A stretch of 64,000 bases of DNA from a virus (taxonomy: Duplodnaviria; Heunggongvirae; Uroviricota; Caudoviricetes), in IMG/VR virus record IMGVR_UViG_2875697941_000001; one strand, written 5' to 3'. Both the position numbers and the translations under genes were made by a program. The notes beneath the pieces were generated by a model that saw nothing but the letters and a program-made list of their open reading frames with translations, was not told the origin of the DNA and did no database searches. Shown here piece by piece: positions 3,001-19,699 of this stretch (position 1 is its first letter; each line of letters starts with the position of its first letter).

Positions 3001-5858
3001 TCATCTGCCAGTTTTAGGGCATCGCGCATAACTGGAGTGCCATCAGTACCAAGAACAGGTTTACCGTTCTCATCGAGCACCGGCACCTGGCGAATCTGAT
3101 CGCCATCCATCAGCACATCAAGACCGACGAACAGGTAGTTACTGAATGCCTCTTCACTCAGGAATTCTTTTGCTTCGTAATACCAGTTTTCCAGCACTGA
3201 TTTAGGCACTACATACGCAGTACGGGTGGAGCGACCGTTCTCATAGTTGAACGCCTCAAGCGCCAGCGCGGTCGTGGTTTTACCCAGCCCGGTGCCGAAG
3301 CCCAGGATGCCGCGCCCATCTTCGGACAGTCGGCGCACCTCGCTATTCTGGTAATCAAATGGCTGGCGCTTACCGCTTAATCCCTTCAACCCAAGCGGAT
3401 CGCCAGAGTGTTCATACGGGATATTGCTATTGAACACATCGTTGTATTTGGCAACCAGCTCATCGTAGCGATCGTGCGTCTTGATCCACTTATTGAACTG
3501 GTCCTCAAGCAGTGCCATCTGCTCGCGGTAGCCGTTCGCCGTCGCGCTATCTTTGCCACCGATACGCGCACCATTGAGATACTTTTCCAGCTGTGCCGGG
3601 AACCCGGTCGCGTTTTCACCTGATTTACGGTCCCACTCGTAGCGGATCTCGCCTGTTTCTTTATCCTTACGCTGGACGACACCGTATCGGTGCCCGACGA
3701 ACAGACCATCACCACCGTGATAGGTGTCAGAAACCATTTCGTCGCCTTCCAGCTGCACTGACTGCACATAGCGCAGATCCGGATAGCCGTTTTCCTGCAA
3801 AAATTCCAGAATGACGGAACGGTCGAACCAACGGCTATTGAGCTTAAACCGGATATTCTCTGCTGGCGTCTTGATGCGCTTCTCTTCGATCGCTGCCAGC
3901 TGATTAAGGACGTTGTTCTTTACTGGACCGTCGGGGAGCGTGGCGAGGAATTCCTGTTTTGGAGCCACTATCTCGTTAATGTCGCCGCTGGTGGCGCGGG
4001 CGAACGGAACAATCCCGCCATACGGTGAAACCGCAATGCCAGGGGTGCTGGCCAATAAATTAAGCAACTCGTCATCACTGGCTGGCAGTTCGCCGGTAAA
4101 CGCAAGGCGGAAATCATCGAGCTGGATTGGATCGCGAGTGAGATCACTGTAGAGATAACGCAGGGTGTCCTGATAGCTGGTAGAGTCATAACTGGCGCTG
4201 GAATCATGCGTAACCAGTTTTCCTGTCAGCTCGTCAGAAATAGTGCCATCCAGCTTAATTGCACCACGGAAAGCAAACCAGGCGCGCGCACCGCTCCCCG
4301 ATAATTTCGCTATCGGACCGCGACCGGGGTTACCAAAACGGTCAATCTCTGCCTGCAAACGGGATACCAGAGAAAGGCGCTGCTGTTCGATTTGTTCAGC
4401 ACTATGCCCGGCGGCCTTCATATCCTGATATTCAATTAACATCCGGCCAATCATCGCTCCACGATACAAGCGTTCACGGTATTTTTCAGGCTGGCTGTTA
4501 ATCCAGTCCACCAGCTGCACCATATCGTCGCTGATTGATGTGGTGTACTTATCGCGGACATTTGCCATCTGGGTAAATGTCATACCGAGACGGCCTTCTG
4601 TTGTAGTCAGGTTACGCTGAAGAGCCTCCCAGCTATCCGCGCCATAACTGGCAACCTCAATCTTCAGCTCCTTCCCGGCATCAGCTTCAATCCAGCGACC
4701 ACCAGCATATTTTTGCCATACGCCATTAATCAGGCGCATTTCCCCTTCATCAACAACATCTGCGGTCGGTGACGGTTCAGCCATATCGAGCAAAGACCAG
4801 TCGATACGGCTTTCGAAACGATGAATCAGCTTCGCTTTAAGAGCCTGGTTATCAATCTGACCGTCGGCACGAACCTCAATACGCCCCTGGAAGCCCTTTT
4901 CCTGGGTGCCATGAACAAACCGGCGGCCATCCTTTTCAAACCACTTGCCAGAAATAAACGTTGGCCAAAGCACATTTGCCGATTCAAGAGTGCTCTCATC
5001 CACCAGGGGGATTTTCTCAGCCATCTCCGCCGGATGTTTGCGCATCAGCACCACGTCAACGACCGTACTGGTCCCGTTTGCGTCAAAAGTACCGGTAGGC
5101 AAGCGGTGGGCACCAAGAAATTCAGCTTTACGGGATAGGCGCAGGCGTAACCGCTTCATGTTTGAACCTGAAACAATGGACGGCGGCACAATCACGCACA
5201 TGAATCCGCCAGGCTTTATCTTGTCCAACATGCGGAGCATGAAGTAAGACCCCATGTCCGTTTCTTCTGCGTAAGGCTTATCGATGTTGCGTGTGTTATC
5301 ACGACCGCCGAACGGAACGTTACCCACAACATGGTCGAATGAATCGTTAGGCGTGCTTACAGCCAGTTGTTCGAACGGGGAAATTTGTACGCTGTCTTCC
5401 GGATGTAACAGCTGGTTTATACGACCGGAAACACTGCTGATCTCAGTCGCGGTCATCACCGTACCAACCGGTTTTGTCTCATTAAAAACGCCGGTTCCCG
5501 CCGATGGTTCCAGAGTGTTACCTACGTCCGCGCCGTAGAGCTTCATGATCTCCCAGACACCTTCAGCGATCGGCTTTGGTGTGTAATATTCGGAGACGGA
5601 CCCGCCAATGCCGCCTTCACCGGTGTACCCAGCCAGGATCTGGCGCTGTTCATCTGTCAGTGTCGCGCCGTCCACCAGCGAATTAAGCAAATCTATCGCC
5701 TTCTGATTCGCCTCACGGCGCAGTCGGTCATAGCTTTTGCCTTCCACCTTTTCCACGCCGTATTTAATCGGCGCTCGGTGAGATGTTATTGCCCTAATGT
5801 ATTTCAATATTTCGCTGACACTTGAACAGCGAAACACTCCCATAGATAGCTTGTTCAT
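1..5858 (-). CDS. darB: Large N6-adenine methyltransferase / SF2 helicase fusion protein (P1 DarB-like), 3' end beyond window
   Basis: Own minus-strand translation: open frame from ATG 5858 (AAGGA RBS) to window start, >1900 codons; absent from ORF track because the stop lies outside. MTase motif I EPSAGTGVF, motif IV-like GNVPFG; helicase GTGLGKT, DEGH, QRNGRGAR. Divergent from prt as in P1. Confidence 0.7.
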   Translation of the reverse strand, partial: MNKLSMGVFRCSSVSEILKYIRAITSHRAPIKYGVEKVEGKSYDRLRREANQKAIDLLNSLVDGATLTDEQRQILAGYTGEGGIGGSVSEYYTPKPIAEGVWEIMKLYGADVGNTLEPSAGTGVFNETKPVGTVMTATEISSVSGRINQLLHPEDSVQISPFEQLAVSTPNDSFDHVVGNVPFGGRDNTRNIDKPYAEETDMGSYFMLRMLDKIKPGGFMCVIVPPSIVSGSNMKRLRLRLSRKAEFLGAHRLPTGTFDANGTSTVVDVVLMRKHPAEMAEKIPLVDESTLESANVLWPTFISGKWFEKDGRRFVHGTQEKGFQGRIEVRADGQIDNQALKAKLIHRFESRIDWSLLDMAEPSPTADVVDEGEMRLINGVWQKYAGGRWIEADAGKELKIEVASYGADSWEALQRNLTTTEGRLGMTFTQMANVRDKYTTSISDDMVQLVDWINSQPEKYRERLYRGAMIGRMLIEYQDMKAAGHSAEQIEQQRLSLVSRLQAEIDRFGNPGRGPIAKLSGSGARAWFAFRGAIKLDGTISDELTGKLVTHDSSASYDSTSYQDTLRYLYSDLTRDPIQLDDFRLAFTGELPASDDELLNLLASTPGIAVSPYGGIVPFARATSGDINEIVAPKQEFLATLPDGPVKNNVLNQLAAIEEKRIKTPAENIRFKLNSRWFDRSVILEFLQENGYPDLRYVQSVQLEGDEMVSDTYHGGDGLFVGHRYGVVQRKDKETGEIRYEWDRKSGENATGFPAQLEKYLNGARIGGKDSATANGYREQMALLEDQFNKWIKTHDRYDELVAKYNDVFNSNIPYEHSGDPLGLKGLSGKRQPFDYQNSEVRRLSEDGRGILGFGTGLGKTTTALALEAFNYENGRSTRTAYVVPKSVLENWYYEAKEFLSEEAFSNYLFVGLDVLMDGDQIRQVPVLDENGKPVLGTDGTPVMRDALKLADEATITARMNAIPHSNYRAVVFTKEQYARIPLRDDTVDEHAQDMLYDFVAAGRVASAMDSDSHRKEAARRRVLSEYSDTGTEKAEKYPYFEDMGFDSVIADEGHNYRNSYKNGREASQLAYLPTSAVAQSARDMAIKNAYLMKKNGGRGPVLLTATPVVNTPIDAYNMLSHVLPKEYWQNMGIYGPDDFVKFFGKTRLETVQKISGEVEEKMALMGFENLDALRGIFHRWVTLKTAEDVKDTVEIPELDEHQQDAPLTEEQLAAYEELRQQAEAAAKANNGVTTSVNEDGVIEHEKARPIFSIIRDMDRVCTDMDLYYRRITYRFLPEYADAVQQLADSLPKQATSEDDDSDDSITQQSQYSLIDKGEFIQLQVPEAFEQEVNKRLARFGIDEQTVTHPVTPKYAKLIATLKEFFPEGKQIIFTDEKTQHQKLKRIICNALNLEPSKVGILNAQTVAEAGKTGKKLKAVKPPKELPDEPTDAQIAKYNEQMALYDAYIAQQNEMSLGGLEKIAADFQEGRTPIIICNKKAEVGINLHRGTTDIHHLTLPWTPASIAQRNGRGARVGSNRASVRVHYYCGKGSFDEYRLKTLKRKAGWISDILRSDKSEMENADANDMIEMQMYTAKDDGERLAMMQVQMDKAKAAKRARQKEQATIDLQNYIKAQHAAGEDVEVLTAELERSKAELEKTTAEVAKFKQAAMAKAADNADWKARWGSVHHTDRMLLAQYRASLKSAIQRKANISQAISRYEKLLNRTQKAATDIKRLRPLVEDAINKGILDVDPDLVNHANEFLVIGDRSWRVGQYYDCAGDIVRIKSLDFDSQRADVEIIFTLRGTKSGNWDVKTLDKQVDVTPDEDAVMQKISGGVSIAGINDIISCDDFYRFQQRGMIKITDSYGVQTTESGYSIDFVGTYTDPLKHAVYPDRRDGALKSSIAKWVLGMMSEGNNRQIRSAETFLVELFGSNYGDVIASYGDTLSPEAIQEKIADAIAKMPEKTSQGAT

Positions 5859-5925
5859 TGGTAATCCTTAACAAGTGACTAGTGTTAAATTTCCGTTCAA
5901 ACACGATACGAATTATTCTAATTAA

Positions 5926-8656
<2,731 letters not shown>

Positions 8657-10162: not shown

Positions 10163-10364
10163 AGTTTATGAGTAAAAAACGACTGAAAGAAAAGCGGTGG
10201 TCAAGACGCCGACAAAAGCACGAACTCGCAAACAAACGCCAAAGTTGGCAATGGCACGCGCTTTTAACGAATAGAACACCCCGAGATATTGCTTTCGCTG
10301 GTGGGAAAACATTCCTAACCAACCTGAAGGCGCAATACATCAGTTTTTAAGCAGAGAAAAGACT

Positions 10365-11159
10365 ATGACAGCACAAAATACTAAAACCATTCAATACCGC
10401 CTGCGTAATGGCCAGAGTGTAGAAGTGACCATCAATAATGATGGTGTACCTGGCGAAAAGGTTTCTATCTCTGATCTGGCTATCGAAAAAACCATCATGT
10501 GCCACCTTGGCTTTACTGAAGAAGTGAGCAAAAAGCATGGTGTAGCTATCTGGCGCACAATGGATACTGGCATGCGCAGATTCATTACTGCTCGTACCCC
10601 TGGTATGACCATGATGGACCTCATACAGATTGCGCCGCTGTTTGAGTGTGAACCTTTGGATGTATTCAGCAATCCAGCTATCTGCCAGCAGTTATATGGT
10701 GAGATGAAACTCGCGGTTACCCCCATTGTGCTGCATGAAGGATCGCTTGCTGGCGTATGGAAAGTAGAGCGAATTTCAAGCTACATGCCATTCCACATCC
10801 ATGTCAACGGCGTAATCGCAGGTGAAAATCAACCTGTTTCCGTTATAAAGTCAGACCTCAATCGCGCAATTCTTGAAGCAAGTTGTCGAGTTATCGGCCT
10901 GGGCAAACAGTCTTATGTTTCCTTCCCGGCTGGTCCTGAAGGCCCGGCAGAAATTCTGATTATGGATGCTGATCTGCTCTGGCAAATACAGTTTCTGATT
11001 GGCAAAAGCATCATCCGTGCTGAAGAACTCGATCAGTACATTACCTGCACGATGACGGATGAAGTCAAAAGTGTGGCTATAGCCAATGCCCGGAACCTGT
11101 GTCGTGCTGCATTAACAGAACCGCAAGAAAACATTCCAGAAGAAACAGAAAGTGACTAA
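10365..11159 (+). CDS. Hypothetical protein, 264 aa
   Basis: ORF track; no recognisable motif; immediately upstream of the HipA-like gene. Confidence 0.5.
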   Translation: MTAQNTKTIQYRLRNGQSVEVTINNDGVPGEKVSISDLAIEKTIMCHLGFTEEVSKKHGVAIWRTMDTGMRRFITARTPGMTMMDLIQIAPLFECEPLDVFSNPAICQQLYGEMKLAVTPIVLHEGSLAGVWKVERISSYMPFHIHVNGVIAGENQPVSVIKSDLNRAILEASCRVIGLGKQSYVSFPAGPEGPAEILIMDADLLWQIQFLIGKSIIRAEELDQYITCTMTDEVKSVAIANARNLCRAALTEPQENIPEETESD

Positions 11160-11160
11160 T

Positions 11161-11190
11161 AAAAACCCCGTCAGTTGGCGGGGAACTCCA
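11161..11190. terminator. Hairpin downstream of ORF 10365-11159
   Basis: A-run then CCCCG-loop-CGGGG stem; T-run only on the minus strand, so it may terminate minus-strand transcripts. Confidence 0.35.
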
Positions 11191-11356
11191 CGTCAAATGG
11201 CCAATTGTTATGTCAGCTAGCAGTTAAAGCGCCTAGTCATCATCTTTTAAAGAAGTCTTTTTAACTTACCTAAATTAGTGACACCTCCCGTTTTGCTTGC
11301 TATTGTACGCATTCATGAATCTATTCATTAATCTATTCACAATAGTAATTAAAACT

Positions 11357-12661
11357 ATGGCTATACATGCAACAACAATCCGTAATTTGCTCAATCAAGG
11401 TCCTATGACACCAAGACAATTGGTTGAAAGACTAGGTGTTAGCCAACCAACGATATCTAGAGCATTAAGAGATCTTGGTGATGAAATCGTTAGGATCGGA
11501 AATGGAAGATCTATTCAATATGCTTTACGAGACTCTTTTAGAGGATTCGAATCAGTCCCCATTTATCGTATAACTGAAGAGGGGTGTATTTGCGTTCTTG
11601 GTACTCTCATTCCGGTGAGGCCAGAAGGCTATGTTATGGTTGAGGAAGGGAAAAATAACAGGCATAGCGATGGGTTACCTTGGTGGTTATTTGATATGCG
11701 TCCACAAGGCTTCCTTGGAAGAGCATATGCATCAGCATATGCTCTTGAACTTAACCTTCCCTCAAATCCAGAGCAATGGTCAGATACTGACGTGATCAAA
11801 GCCTTACTTAAGCATGGGCATGATGTTGTTGGTAATTTGTTAATTGGAGAGCAAGCACGCACGCATTTTTTAGAGATGCAGCCTCCTGTTCCTGTTAATC
11901 GTGAAAGTGAATATCCTGTATTAGCTTTAGCTGCTGGTGAAGGTGATGTGCCCGGTTCATCTGCTGGAGGTGAACAACCCAAATTTTGTACTTTCACAGA
12001 GCGTGGACATGTATTAGTGAAATTCTCTGCGCCTAACGACACCCCTATAAGTGAGCGTTGGAGAGATCTCTTGTTTGCTGAACATCTCGCATTAAAAGTT
12101 CTGGGGGTAGAAACAGAAGTTTTTGATTATAACGGTCAGAGATTCTTGGAAATTCCCCGATTTGATCGTGTTGGTCAACTAGGTCGGGTAGGTGTATTCT
12201 CACTTCGTGCACTTGATGCAGAATTTGTTGGGAATGCAAGAGCAACATGGCCCTTGCTGGTTAAAGAGTTGGTAAAAAATAAGTGCGTCCATCCTGATGC
12301 GATTATTATAGCAACAAGGCTATGGTCTTTTGGTTTGCTAATAGGCAATACCGATATGCATAATGGTAACCTATCGTTTATTAGTAGCCACGGACGCCCA
12401 TATCATATTGCTCCAGCCTATGACATGTTACCTATGGGTTTTGCTCCACGCTCTGGGGGAGCAATATCTAATGAGCTTAGAAAAACAGCACTACCAGACT
12501 TTGTAAGTCGAAAAATATGGGATGAATCTCTTGAATTGGCTGAAAAATTTTATGCATTGGCCTGTGAGTCCGACAAATTCTCAGCTAACTTTACTCCATG
12601 TTTAGAAGCGCTACGCATCCACCTAGATGATTGTAAGATACGCATAGCCCGCCTGGCATAA
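11357..12661 (+). CDS. HipA-family Ser/Thr kinase with fused N-terminal HTH (YjjJ/HipH-like)
   Basis: HTH RQLVERLGVSQPTISRAL; HipA motifs GGEQPKF, GNTDMHNGNLSF, APAYDML. Start uncertain (TTG 11297, ATG 11315 or ATG 11357). AT-rich relative to flanks. Confidence 0.6.
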   Translation: MAIHATTIRNLLNQGPMTPRQLVERLGVSQPTISRALRDLGDEIVRIGNGRSIQYALRDSFRGFESVPIYRITEEGCICVLGTLIPVRPEGYVMVEEGKNNRHSDGLPWWLFDMRPQGFLGRAYASAYALELNLPSNPEQWSDTDVIKALLKHGHDVVGNLLIGEQARTHFLEMQPPVPVNRESEYPVLALAAGEGDVPGSSAGGEQPKFCTFTERGHVLVKFSAPNDTPISERWRDLLFAEHLALKVLGVETEVFDYNGQRFLEIPRFDRVGQLGRVGVFSLRALDAEFVGNARATWPLLVKELVKNKCVHPDAIIIATRLWSFGLLIGNTDMHNGNLSFISSHGRPYHIAPAYDMLPMGFAPRSGGAISNELRKTALPDFVSRKIWDESLELAEKFYALACESDKFSANFTPCLEALRIHLDDCKIRIARLA

Positions 12662-12664
12662 ACA

Positions 12665-12695
12665 ACAAATCCCGCCGATTGGCGGGATTTCTTCA
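12665..12695. terminator. Bidirectional terminator between the HipA-like gene and the dar operon end
   Basis: Hairpin AAATCCCGCC-GATT-GGCGGGATTT followed by T-rich tract. Confidence 0.6.
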
Positions 12696-13001
12696 ATATA
12701 CGATCTGGTCTGCATGATCACCAAAATCATCGTCGTCGTCCTCATCGCCACCATCTACTGCTGGCCAATCAACAAACCAGCCAGCGTAAAGATGCAGCGT
12801 TCGGAGAACATCACTTGCGGGAGCATCAAGGGTGTTAACGAATCCCATATAGCTATTGGGATTTGCCCCAGCTATGGCTTCAGCGATCATGTCCTCGGTA
12901 ATGTCACCGGAGATAATGCTTAAACGCCCGGAAACTTCTTCATTATCATCAAATTCGATAATGGCATCTCCGCCTAATGGCGCTGCGATTTTAATCTGCA
13001 T
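12693..13001 (-). CDS. Strongly acidic small protein, last gene of the dar operon
   Basis: 102 aa, about 25 Asp/Glu versus 5 basic residues, DGGDEDDDDDFGD near the C-terminus; overlaps the ddrB-like stop. Confidence 0.45.
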   Translation of the reverse strand: MQIKIAAPLGGDAIIEFDDNEEVSGRLSIISGDITEDMIAEAIAGANPNSYMGFVNTLDAPASDVLRTLHLYAGWFVDWPAVDGGDEDDDDDFGDHADQIVY

Positions 13002-15978
13002 TATTTAGCTCCTTTGCCACACCTAATAACAGTTCCAGCAATCCGTCACCATTCATCAGTGATGCGGCAGCGGCCTCTTTGTCATGATACAACTGAAGAG
13101 CCATAGAGAATACTTCCGTTGCTGACGTTTTGGAAATAGTCGGTGATTTCTGCCGAATTTTCCCGGTGTTACTTACTGAGGCTGGCGGGTATACCTTCGC
13201 CATATAAATATTACTCAATCGAGATCTGAAGCACCATTCAGGCTTGCCACGCCCACCGATATTAACGAAAGATGGCTTATCCCCTTCAACATTGGCCTTC
13301 AGGAATGACCGGGCTTTCTCTAACAAACCAGGGTTACTGTACTCAAGATGATGACCCAGCTCGTGCCACAGTGCACTTGCATTTTCATCGTTCAAATTGA
13401 CAGCAACAACACCATTAAGATTTGCATATGCCCTTCCCTGGTGGTGAACCACCTTTGATAAGGTCGATATTTTCCCGCCGGTCAGGCGATAAATATCAGC
13501 AAGTTCCTTGCGCAGGTCTATCCCACCACTCTGTCCAGCGCGGGCTTCTTCCACTTCTTCCGTGATAAAAGAGTCGGCCCACTCAAGAGCTTTTTCTTCA
13601 GATACGGATGAGTTGGCTATCGCACTATTCATGGCAGATAACACTTTCTCGTGGACCGAACCCATACTTCGCTGATTCATTTGCCAGCGTGTCTGCGGGT
13701 TATATGAGAATCGCTTAAGTAGTTGGTCAAGATGCTCAAGTTCTTCTTCGCTGACATACTTTTTAGCCTCACCAATAATGCCGGGGAGAATATTGCCGTT
13801 AGGATTAAACGCTCGCGAAAGGAAGAGTTTCAGCGCCCCCATGCCCTCCGATGCTTCAATATCACCAATAACACGGTTAACAATGGCCGCACTCTTCGGA
13901 TTAGCATCCGCCAACGCTCTGGCTACGATTTGCAGGGACGATACGACCTCACGCTGCATATCAGTCCTGATCTCATCAATAAACTCTGGCGTTATGCCGT
14001 GCTCTTTAAGGATATCCCTGCCTTCCGCCGTTACCCCATCGATATCACCGACATGTTTATTAACCTGACTTTGCAATGCCTTAAATGCCTTCAGAATTCC
14101 ACGGGCATCATCAGCTTTACTAACGGCCTTCCTGAATGCTGGCAAGAAGTCAGAGTTAACCTCATTTTGTTGATCGGCCCACTGAATGGAGGCTTCTTTC
14201 ATCTCGTCCAGAGTCAGATCACCCAACGCGGTATGGTCTGTGAATATGAGCGACAACCTCTGAACCATTTCTGCCAATGGTGATGCCGAATGCGCCGCGC
14301 TAAGGAATGCTTTCACCCTGGTTGGGCGAATGGAAAACCAGTCAATAGCTGGTGGCATATCTCCGTTTTTTATCGCCTGCGCTATCTCGTCAAAGCCATC
14401 GCGCCCAAGGGAGGATGCGTGATTTAACAAGCCGCGAAGTAACGAATTGCTGATACCGAATAATCGGCACCATTTTTTCACGTCGGCAACAGGCATTCGA
14501 ACAAAATGCGCAAGCACTTGTACAAGCTGTTCATCCTGGGGATCTGTGCGGGAAAGCAGCCTGATCAGATGAATAATGTCTTTGATGCCGGATGCCCGAT
14601 GTAATAGCAAACTGGTATACGGAGCAACACCGTTGTAACTACCGCCGGAAACGGACTCGAAAAGACCGCCGGATATCCCTTGCATGCCTTCGTTTTCCAG
14701 TTCCTGAGACACCTGGCGAAGGATATCCTGTAACGACACATCACCACCGCCAAACATATCCCCCAGCGCCTGGCCCTGGTGCTGTAACTCATCATTGATA
14801 CGTTGAGCCATCAATTTAAAGGCGGTGGCCATACGCTTCGCGCTACGGTTATTCGCGACGATGAACAACGCGAGCGCTTTCACTTCCGGGGCTGTTTCGC
14901 TGAACATATCCCCCTGAGCAATAACATCGATAATATGTTGGTCTGACTCCTTCGATTGCCTTACCAGGTCTACCGCATCTTTCAATGCCGCCAGCGCCTT
15001 TTTATCGAGACTATCCGCTGTCTCAATACCATCAACAATAGTTGTCACAGCCTGCTTGTGCGCTTCTCCTGATAAAGCCTGCATCTGGACAAAATCATTG
15101 GCTGCCGCATTAAGCGCCGTCAGAACATTACGCATATCCGGATCAGGTTCTTCTGCAACCATCCTTACCAGGCGCGCATCCTTATATGCCTTGGCAAAGA
15201 TCGCGTTTTGTATACGGTCTACAAGTTGCCGTGTTGGTCGCCCATCTTCCGTTACAAGGCCAGCAGCCTGTGTGGCACCAACTTGCGTCATGAATCCGCG
15301 AATAAACGCGTCATTACTGCGGCTAAGCAGATCTCCGCTTTCTGATGGGTTAAACAGCGTCATCATCGCCGGAGTTATGCTGTCAGCATCAACAAAAGCC
15401 TTTTCACTGGCTGCCATTTCCTGAAGATCAGAAATATTTGAGTCCTTGGCAAACTGAACGCGGTCAACCTTAGTTAACCGGCGGCGCACCAGTACCGGAG
15501 CCGCCATTGATTCAACCTTTTCAGGTCGTATGCCGAATTCGGTCGCATGATCAATCAGGTACTCACGATACCGATCCGCATTGCCGTCCTGATAGGCTTT
15601 GATGATCCCCATGGTCCGTCCATTACCTGACTCAACGGCATTGTCCTCACCAATTATCGGCGCGCCATGGCTGGATAAACCGGAATCGGTAAGCTGGGCA
15701 GGACGCAAATCCTTGGATATCTGGTTGACCTGAAGAAGACTGGATGCGCGGGTCCGGTCGCGCGGCTGAAGTTCCTGGGGATAGTCAGGGTTAATTTTCC
15801 CGTCCAGAGTATTGGATACCAAAAGAGCTGAGGCATCGACGATATCAAACGCTGTTTTTACCTCGTCTCCCTTCGCTGTCACCACATACGAAACCCGCCC
15901 GTAATTGGGCAGGTTTTTTAGCAGCTCGATCAGCGTTTCTATGCTGGTGGCCATTACCACCTGATCGCTTAAGCTCAT
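12991..15978 (-). CDS. ddrB: DdrB-like antirestriction/capsid-associated protein, 995 aa
   Basis: Size and position downstream of darA/ddrA as recalled for P1; contains an HELGHH (HExxH) motif. Confidence 0.55.
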   Translation of the reverse strand: MSLSDQVVMATSIETLIELLKNLPNYGRVSYVVTAKGDEVKTAFDIVDASALLVSNTLDGKINPDYPQELQPRDRTRASSLLQVNQISKDLRPAQLTDSGLSSHGAPIIGEDNAVESGNGRTMGIIKAYQDGNADRYREYLIDHATEFGIRPEKVESMAAPVLVRRRLTKVDRVQFAKDSNISDLQEMAASEKAFVDADSITPAMMTLFNPSESGDLLSRSNDAFIRGFMTQVGATQAAGLVTEDGRPTRQLVDRIQNAIFAKAYKDARLVRMVAEEPDPDMRNVLTALNAAANDFVQMQALSGEAHKQAVTTIVDGIETADSLDKKALAALKDAVDLVRQSKESDQHIIDVIAQGDMFSETAPEVKALALFIVANNRSAKRMATAFKLMAQRINDELQHQGQALGDMFGGGDVSLQDILRQVSQELENEGMQGISGGLFESVSGGSYNGVAPYTSLLLHRASGIKDIIHLIRLLSRTDPQDEQLVQVLAHFVRMPVADVKKWCRLFGISNSLLRGLLNHASSLGRDGFDEIAQAIKNGDMPPAIDWFSIRPTRVKAFLSAAHSASPLAEMVQRLSLIFTDHTALGDLTLDEMKEASIQWADQQNEVNSDFLPAFRKAVSKADDARGILKAFKALQSQVNKHVGDIDGVTAEGRDILKEHGITPEFIDEIRTDMQREVVSSLQIVARALADANPKSAAIVNRVIGDIEASEGMGALKLFLSRAFNPNGNILPGIIGEAKKYVSEEELEHLDQLLKRFSYNPQTRWQMNQRSMGSVHEKVLSAMNSAIANSSVSEEKALEWADSFITEEVEEARAGQSGGIDLRKELADIYRLTGGKISTLSKVVHHQGRAYANLNGVVAVNLNDENASALWHELGHHLEYSNPGLLEKARSFLKANVEGDKPSFVNIGGRGKPEWCFRSRLSNIYMAKVYPPASVSNTGKIRQKSPTISKTSATEVFSMALQLYHDKEAAAASLMNGDGLLELLLGVAKELNNAD

Positions 15979-18273: not shown

Positions 18274-18885
18274 TTAATTTCCTGCTTTCAGTTGCTTAAG
18301 ACGACGTTTGAGTTCGCCATTCCGTGCCTTTTCGTTATTGAGTCGGCCCGTCTCCTTATCCAGCTTCGCCCGCAAATCAGTGATCTGCTGTTGATTGAAA
18401 GACACCGAATTCTGCGCGGACTTATAAGCGGCAACCACCTGAGCATTCCGCTGTTTTGCTTCTTGCAGGCGCTGAAAGTTGGATTTAACTGCCGGTTTCT
18501 TGTCTACCGGATTGGCAACACGCTTCGCTTTGGCGATCAGTGATTTCTGGAATTTTGCGGAGTTTTTGCGGGCCGCCTGTCCCATGACGGTACCAAGCGT
18601 CTTGATATCCGGCGACTGAGCGTTAGGAATAGCTTTTCCATTCAGTTTCACAGACGATATATCGCCAGTATCGTTTACCTGTATGGCAAGAATTTGTCCG
18701 TCGTTAAGAACCAGCTTTGCGGTTTTAACTTTAACGCCATCTTTCGTTGTTGCGCGGTTGCTGGAGTCAACCTCAATTACCGTAACACCGGTTTTATTGA
18801 TCGCCGCGATAAGGGATTTCAGCCCCTTTTCATTAACCTGGTCAAAATCGACCGTTGCATACTTATTTTTCGTCATCTGACACAT
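18274..18885 (-). CDS. hdf: Hdf-like protein (homolog of a DarA fragment), 203 aa
   Basis: Visible similarity to the DarA segment around AEKNSAKFQRAQKKKKAL; directly upstream of darA. Confidence 0.6.
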   Translation of the reverse strand: MCQMTKNKYATVDFDQVNEKGLKSLIAAINKTGVTVIEVDSSNRATTKDGVKVKTAKLVLNDGQILAIQVNDTGDISSVKLNGKAIPNAQSPDIKTLGTVMGQAARKNSAKFQKSLIAKAKRVANPVDKKPAVKSNFQRLQEAKQRNAQVVAAYKSAQNSVSFNQQQITDLRAKLDKETGRLNNEKARNGELKRRLKQLKAGN

Positions 18886-19632: not shown

Positions 19633-19699
19633 AAGTTCCCTCCTACGTTGTCAGGAGGTAATGGTATGCAAAGTAACTTCTCAACCGGTCATTTGTTGC

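Follow-up and report, generated by a model that had tools for sequence, protein, structure and literature searches.

hxr, an acidic orphan gene of the darA operon in P1-like phage-plasmids, and the possible partnership of its product with DdrB

Results

The hxr locus

The DNA analyzed here (the window) is a stretch of 64,000 nucleotides and, by sequence identity, part of an E. coli P1-like phage-plasmid. Positions 10200-13100 were 100% identical to several E. coli plasmids of roughly 90-100 kb, and from the hxr stop codon onward the window DNA was 98% identical to P1, P7, SJ46 and RCS47. The minus strand carries the genes lydA-lydB-hdf-darA-ddrA-ddrB-hxr in that order, with hxr as the last cistron. 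The features of this region are as follows:

12667..12690, minus strand: terminator-like hairpin of 10 pairs (6 G-C), starting 2 nt after the hxr stop
12693..13001, minus strand: hxr coding sequence (102 codons plus TGA), equivalent to P1 hxr / P1_gp021 / YP_006490.1
12991..13001, minus strand: 11-nt overlap of ddrB and hxr (ddrB TAA at 12993-12991; hxr ATG at 13001-12999)
13009..13014, minus strand: hxr Shine-Dalgarno sequence AAGGAG, 7 nt upstream of the ATG and within conserved Lys-Glu codons at the DdrB C-terminus
12991..15978, minus strand: ddrB (995 aa), with a ParB-type N-terminal domain, a variable middle and a C-terminal HExxH region
19661..19679, minus strand: late promoter LPdar (AAGTTACTTTGCATACCAT), identical to the annotated P1 promoter

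The 102-codon, ATG-started ORF in the window's ORF list is the already catalogued phage P1 gene hxr. The gene was known beforehand, and the first-pass annotation had not recognized it as the annotated P1 hxr. In the identical E. coli plasmids PGAP labels the gene 'hypothetical protein', and the product belongs to PHROG 2292 (E = 1e-58), an unnamed family of unknown function. Hxr contains 17 Asp and 6 Glu (22.5% acidic residues) against 3 Lys/Arg, with a net charge of -20.3 at pH 7, a pI of 4.05 and a mass of 10.98 kDa, and no other product among the window's 97 ORFs with a Met start and a length of 80 aa or more is as acidic. The earlier description of a real, strongly acidic 102-aa protein is borne out by these values, its wording of 'about a quarter' Asp/Glu being slightly generous, and the acidic stretch that it placed near the C-terminus, DGGDEDDDDDFGD, is present. 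Two plus-strand ORFs, 12714-12923 and 12856-13008, are shadow ORFs; the conserved frame is that of hxr on the minus strand. The hxr region gave no Rfam match to an RNA element. The single Hxr sequence matched nothing characterized in Pfam, NCBIfam, PADLOC or the PDB sequences, and 23 members of the family, or their profile, matched nothing characterized in Pfam or the PDB.

The placement of the gene beside ddrB in the dar operon, as first annotated, agreed with the P1 gene order and with the upstream 995-aa ORF, which matched PF18763 (ddrB-ParB; E = 3e-39) and was 98% identical to P1 at the DNA level. The claimed translational coupling of hxr to ddrB was supported by the 11-nt overlap and by the AAGGAG located 7 nt before the ATG. 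LPdar is the only annotated promoter for lydA...hxr, and a search of the 600 nt preceding hxr on its own strand turned up no sigma-70-like site. The location of the Shine-Dalgarno sequence inside conserved DdrB codons, together with the failure to find a separate promoter, points to co-expression of ddrB and hxr. The hairpin 2 nt past the stop codon agrees with the claim that hxr ends the operon. It closes the darA operon and marks the boundary with a variable cargo region; immediately downstream of the hxr stop 33 of 80 P1-like loci diverge at once. The gene is encoded in the darA operon, and the same arrangement was found in 10 other divergent loci. Within the operon, hdf (18274..18885, minus strand) encodes a protein with a pI of 10.2 and a net charge of +20.5; the other operon products from darA onward are all acidic.

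The hxr family and selection on its reading frame

An exhaustive HMMER search over 1.8 billion representative proteins, followed by a profile search, recovered a family of only about 25 clusters, all of them 95-105 aa in length except for fragments and one tandem duplicate. Members were found in Escherichia, Salmonella, Klebsiella, Enterobacter, Cronobacter, Citrobacter and Rosenbergiella, and the family was confined to P1-like phage-plasmids of Enterobacterales, the elements being phage-plasmid-sized wherever the sequence was long enough. When members outside P1-like elements were looked for, the HMMER search yielded only about 10 distant small homologues and spurious matches to FG-GAP/VCBS repeats, and a scan of genome contigs gave no match.

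The hxr ORF was intact in 80/80 P1-like IMG/VR loci, which encoded 22 protein variants that differed nearly always in the tail. Across the first 82 codons of these 80 copies we counted 16 synonymous variants over 55 sites and 10 non-synonymous variants over 191 sites (pN/pS of about 0.18), and almost all of the non-synonymous variants were singletons. As judged from sequence variation, hxr is a real gene under selection. The poly-Asp codons (GAT/GAC; 12720..12745, minus strand) vary in number among otherwise near-identical P1-like elements; the Asp run was 4-9 residues long and in frame throughout the 80 loci, a variation suggestive of slippage in which selection retains the changes that keep the frame open.

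Linkage of hxr to ddrB

We compared the gene order in a set of 11 divergent loci consisting of the window, nine loci with Hxr at 30-45% identity (L082, L085 and L087-L093) and L094. In all 11, hxr was located directly after ddrB with an overlapping start; the overlap was 11 nt in eight of the nine, 14 nt in the ninth and 17 nt in L094. Each of the nine also contained AAGGAG or AAGGAA at the same place within the conserved Lys-Glu codons of DdrB and a G+C-rich hairpin 3' of the hxr stop, while DdrB was about 44% identical in the two pairs compared directly (L082, L085). Inserted genes, HicB in L088 and GerE plus SSB in L092, were located between ddrA and ddrB and never between ddrB and hxr. Synteny stopped at the hxr stop, beyond which we found toxin-antitoxin pairs, a porin or SSB, and in the window a 264-aa ORF and yjjJ.

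The 80 P1-like loci gave a similar picture: the ddrB TAA was at the same position inside the hxr start in every locus, and the upstream ORF was full length in 71. Six independent IMG/VR loci carried an in-frame ddrB deletion that removed residues ~13-445, the whole ParB-type half, leaving a 562-aa protein with the HExxH region that was still coupled to an intact hxr. This allele was present in L016, L031, L040, L059, L060 and L081 (about 4323..6011 in each); in L033, ddrB was frameshifted. Taken over both sets (11/11 divergent and 80/80 P1-like loci), hxr always adjoined ddrB in an arrangement for co-expression, as the gene for a client-dedicated protein would.

L094, a P7-like element with a porin gene, encodes a tandem-duplicated, two-domain Hxr of 184 aa (P0015; 8001..8555) in the usual place after ddrB. 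The first copy carries a short acidic linker, and the full poly-Asp tail is found on the second. Tandem duplication of this kind usually marks a domain that functions as a dimer, and it suggests as much for Hxr.

Predicted fold and acidic tail of Hxr

Hxr was divided into two parts on the basis of AF2 models and the family alignment:

12756..13001, minus strand: predicted globular alpha/beta domain, codons 1-82, net charge -10
12696..12755, minus strand: polyanionic disordered tail, codons 83-102, DGGDEDDDDDFGDHADQIVY, net charge -10, pLDDT below 50

Two independent AF2 runs, with 10 and 23 sequences, agreed on the fold. The predicted order of the domain (residues 1-82) is beta-beta-beta-alpha-alpha-beta, with strands at residues 2-6, 12-16 and 28-32, helices at 36-44 and 62-71 and a last strand at 76-78; the pLDDT was about 81-89 for the greater part of the domain, dropping to about 70 at residues 21-30. 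The model had no structural neighbors in the PDB or BFVD. Residues G53, V65, L66, R67, W75, W79 and P80 were invariant in the family alignment, in which the motifs PNSxxGxVN, VLR[ST]L and GWxVxWP are followed by the tail of about 20 residues.

The poly-Asp tract of variable length lies in the tail, and the last two residues are conserved as [VI]-[NYH]: V/I comes next to last and N/Y/H last in 22 of 23 family sequences (the C-termini across the family are IVY, IVN, VVN, DVN, ETN and PIH). The 20 homologues at 30-62% identity were all alike in this respect: the pI fell between 4.05 and 4.15, the domain carried a charge of -4 to -9, and the charge of the tail was -7 to -13. Since pI and charges are kept in all 20, the acidity of Hxr is, on this comparison of sequences, not due to chance; in the tail it is the charge that is conserved and not the sequence. 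The SSB tail is likewise acidic and ends in D-D-D-I-P-F with an essential terminal Phe, and the SSB encoded in the window ends in DFDDDIPF. Mimicry of the SSB tail was rejected, as no C-terminus in the family ends in Phe.

DdrB and a candidate basic surface

The DdrB motif WHELGHHLE (residues 871-879) was found as an invariant WHExGHHxE across nine homologues. The C-terminal region of DdrB has been assigned as a zincin-like metallopeptidase (MPTase), which is proposed to autoprocess DdrB from 109 to 76 kDa before packaging (Iyer et al., PMC5512222). We obtained no Pfam or PDB match in independent support of the MPTase, and we treat it as a prediction that rests on the invariant HExxH and on that report. 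DdrB is acidic overall (pI 5.5). One extended stretch just after the HExxH, at about residues 881-960, was net basic in 9/9 homologues, and a single 40-residue window at 821-860 was also net positive in all nine. The ddrB gene contains antisense ORFs (13723..14283, plus strand), one of which is annotated in P1 as iddB, of 'unknown function'; iddB is non-essential by CRISPRi, and we saw no sign of its being a gene.

Discussion

A possible role for Hxr as a partner of DdrB

We tentatively propose that Hxr is an acidic chaperone or inhibitor dedicated to DdrB, a reading suggested by the sequence data that we hold as possible and somewhat short of an even chance. Hxr would be a late partner of DdrB, a large polyvalent Dar protein that enters the P1 head during packaging and leaves it with the DNA. 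Translational coupling of the two genes would have Hxr made stoichiometrically and in step with its partner. The small alpha/beta domain would bind the C-terminal half of DdrB, and the polyanionic tail, with its short hydrophobic C-terminal anchor, would cover the conserved basic surface beside the HExxH site. DdrB would thereby be kept soluble, off the replicating DNA and/or proteolytically silent in the producing cell until it is processed and loaded into the procapsid, and Hxr itself would be left behind or carried in trace amounts only. What the sequences show is the identity of the gene, its acidity, coupling, strict linkage and conservation, and the lack of Xre, Ocr or ArdA features; the binding to DdrB, the binding site and the role as chaperone or inhibitor are all what we infer. 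The packaging chaperone that the first-pass annotation gave as an option is a plausible proposal and would fit the strict ddrB-hxr linkage.

The linkage, as read from gene order, is the one strong positive signal for this partnership. The pair also stays together through operon insertions and the loss of the ParB half of DdrB, and the alignments show conservation of the tail charge and of the [VI]-[NYH] end on the Hxr side and of a basic region at DdrB ~881-960, in all nine homologues, on the other. Further points in its favor are the implied co-expression, the selection on hxr, the tandem-duplicated Hxr of L094, the absence of Hxr from the published virion proteome in which DdrB, DdrA, DarA and Hdf were found (PMC9024508), and the CRISPRi result that hxr, like the other Dar genes, is non-essential (PMC10695390). 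Against the partnership, the linkage could just reflect one operon block inherited within a single phage lineage, and the ParB-less ddrB allele may be recent, which makes the retention of hxr there weak evidence. The predicted fold resembles no known chaperone or inhibitor, and DdrB, being acidic overall, has no obvious need of a polyanionic partner. The six Dar components of the published work do not include Hxr (PMC9024508, PMC12707154), so that an hxr deletion may already have been found to be silent. Beyond the CRISPRi entry, which was obtained on a non-restricting host, and gene lists we found no published hxr phenotype.

A more specific form of the proposal would make Hxr an overlooked seventh Dar component, an orphan-fold, DdrB-specific chaperone or inhibitor whose tail would imitate DNA or a substrate locally, at the basic MPTase face. 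Hxr would then control DdrB autoprocessing and procapsid loading and, via DdrB, DarB packaging and EcoB/EcoK protection. No 'effector chaperone' would have been described before it for proteins that a phage head injects. We regard this fuller scheme as fairly unlikely.

Possible action of Hxr independent of DdrB

Hxr might instead act late and independently of DdrB, as an inhibitor of a host nuclease or abortive-infection sensor, as a chaperone whose client is some other Dar protein that binds DNA, for instance the very basic Hdf, or as an acidic docking-tail mimic. Docking is commonly mediated by acidic tails that end in hydrophobic residues (SSB, T7 gp2.5), and in charge Hdf (pI 10.2, +20.5) is the mirror image of Hxr. 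The DarA-Hdf complex also has a positive DNA-binding face (PMC12810830). When the operon is split by insertions, however, hxr stays by ddrB and not by hdf or darA, and the [VI]-[NYH] end of Hxr lacks the terminal Phe of the SSB tail. We consider an action of this kind unlikely.

Hxr as a possible packaged head protein

The other products of hdf-darA-ddrA-ddrB are all virion proteins (PMC9024508), which would fit Hxr being a minor packaged head protein, either as a seventh virion Dar component or as an internal polyanion, that is ejected with the DNA and acts in the cell just infected. Small size and acidity are found in DdrA too (pI 4.1). The LC-MS/MS virion proteome contained DdrB, DdrA, DarA and Hdf and lacked Hxr, even though the 13-kDa DdrA was detected (PMC9024508). 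Trypsin would release from Hxr one peptide of convenient size (22 aa), the others being 4, 35 and 41 aa, and the authors of the proteome state that small low-copy proteins were missed (PMC9024508), so the absence of Hxr is weak evidence. Hxr is nevertheless not one of the six Dar proteins named in published work, and a polyanion in a DNA-filled head would be electrostatically unfavorable, the resolved DNA-facing surface of DarA-Hdf being positive (PMC12810830). Packaging of Hxr seems to us decidedly unlikely.

Unlikely roles for Hxr as a DNA mimic or repressor

The first-pass annotation had raised a DNA mimic of the Ocr or ArdA type, that is, a free-standing protein binding type I R-M enzymes or another DNA-binding defense protein in place of DNA. 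The net charge of -20, the pI of 4.05, the acidity conserved across the family and the location of the gene in an antirestriction operon would all fit such a protein. The remaining comparisons did not support it. With the general Pfam library, which should include the Ocr (PF08684) and ArdA (PF07275) models, we obtained no match for the window protein at E up to 0.1 or for the 23 members at E up to 1. Ocr is an all-alpha elongated dimer with carboxylates that copy bent B-form DNA, features not seen in the Hxr model, and the ArdA profile and three-domain elongated dimer likewise had no profile or structural counterpart in Hxr. The suggested calculation of pI and charge distribution gave net charges of -10 each for codons 1-82 and the tail, and the suggested structure prediction placed half of the negative charge in the flexible tail with no rigid DNA-like array. 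Ocr is expressed immediately on DNA entry, and hxr is the last gene of the late LPdar operon with no sigma-70-like site in the 600 nt before it. Dar protection is confined to DNA that shares a particle with the proteins, and a co-infecting Dar- phage is not rescued (reviewed in PMC12707154). The late operon, the cis-only phenotype and the absence of Hxr from the virion proteome argue against a mimic acting in trans, and we judge this reading very unlikely.

The P1 reference annotation, 'possible repressor; homolog of Xre', goes back to 28% identity with B. subtilis Xre across ~58 residues, and the name has been copied into many records; we give an Xre-type transcriptional repressor a negligible probability. 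At E up to 1, none of the 23 sequences of the family matched a helix-turn-helix profile, HTH_3 (PF01381 and relatives) included; NCBIfam gave no match for Hxr, the PDB sequences gave none at E up to 10 and a PDB profile search returned no HTH protein. Xre is a five-helix bundle with a neutral or basic DNA-binding surface; the Hxr model opens with three beta strands and has only two helices, and its net charge of -20 makes it incompatible with DNA binding. PGAP no longer uses the label, which is refuted as far as sequence and predicted structure allow and should be dropped. The probability that is left over belongs to Hxr having no function or to something that we did not consider.

Comparison with known systems

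P1 Hxr and its copies in P7, SJ46, RCS47 and P1-like plasmids are the same gene, with 95-100% protein identity and the same place after ddrB. The window protein differs from P1 Hxr by one or two tail substitutions and by poly-Asp length, and the downstream cargo differs, being the 264-aa ORF and yjjJ in the window and isaA-IS1-isaB in P1. Hxr is similar to Ocr (T7 gp0.3) and ArdA in being a small, strongly acidic protein from a mobile element that needs to evade type I restriction. Unlike them, it shares neither sequence nor fold similarity with either, its charge is divided, part residing in the compact domain and part in the disordered tail, its expression is late and not immediate-early, and Dar acts in cis only.

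Immunity or inhibitor proteins encoded just 3' of the C-terminal enzymatic domain of a large protein are known from colicin DNase/Im pairs and from polymorphic toxins. The hxr-ddrB pair resembles the colicin pairs in its small acidic product, in a gene overlapping the end of that for a large multidomain protein with a C-terminal catalytic domain, in co-translation and in strict pairing; it differs in that there is no homology and in that the DdrB C-terminal domain is a predicted autoprocessing metallopeptidase and not a demonstrated toxin. Injected effectors can have dedicated chaperones, such as the class I chaperones of type III secretion. Hxr would be similar to these in size (~100-130 aa), in pI (4-5), in having its gene beside that of the client, in being probably dimeric (compare P0015) and in not being delivered itself, and DdrB would be similar to type III effectors in having to pass a narrow conduit into another cell. 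We regard the likeness to colicin/immunity pairs and to effector chaperones as one of logic and not of ancestry.

The P1 Dar system is the model for antirestriction by head-packaged proteins that enter the cell along with the DNA, and structural work on it is active (2017, 2022, 2026). The hxr gene is present in this operon in every P1-like element examined. Its label as an Xre homolog and possible repressor failed every test applied, yet has spread through hundreds of phage and plasmid records, and dropping it would usefully tidy those records. Should the processing or loading of DdrB prove to be under the control of Hxr, the readying of large polyvalent proteins for injection would gain a regulatory step, and the finding would be relevant to the engineering of P1 capsids as protein-delivery vehicles. 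If Hxr does nothing measurable, it would be one more small orphan phage gene.

Surroundings of hxr in the window

The slot between ssb and hxr is occupied by variable cargo. In the window it contains the 264-aa ORF (10365..11159, plus strand), which had no family match, and a HipA-family kinase with an N-terminal winged-helix domain (11297..12661, plus strand; NCBIfam YjjJ equivalog, E = 4e-160). The listed TTG start of the kinase probably over-extends the gene, the profile alignment beginning at residue 24, near an ATG at ~11357. Both genes are candidate toxin or defense cargo of the phage-plasmid. Elsewhere in the window, Rfam matches at gathering level identified the C4 antisense RNA with its a1/b1 targets, as in the P1 immI region (35670..35722 and 35791..35876, plus strand), and the IS009 RNA family (56970..57168, minus strand).
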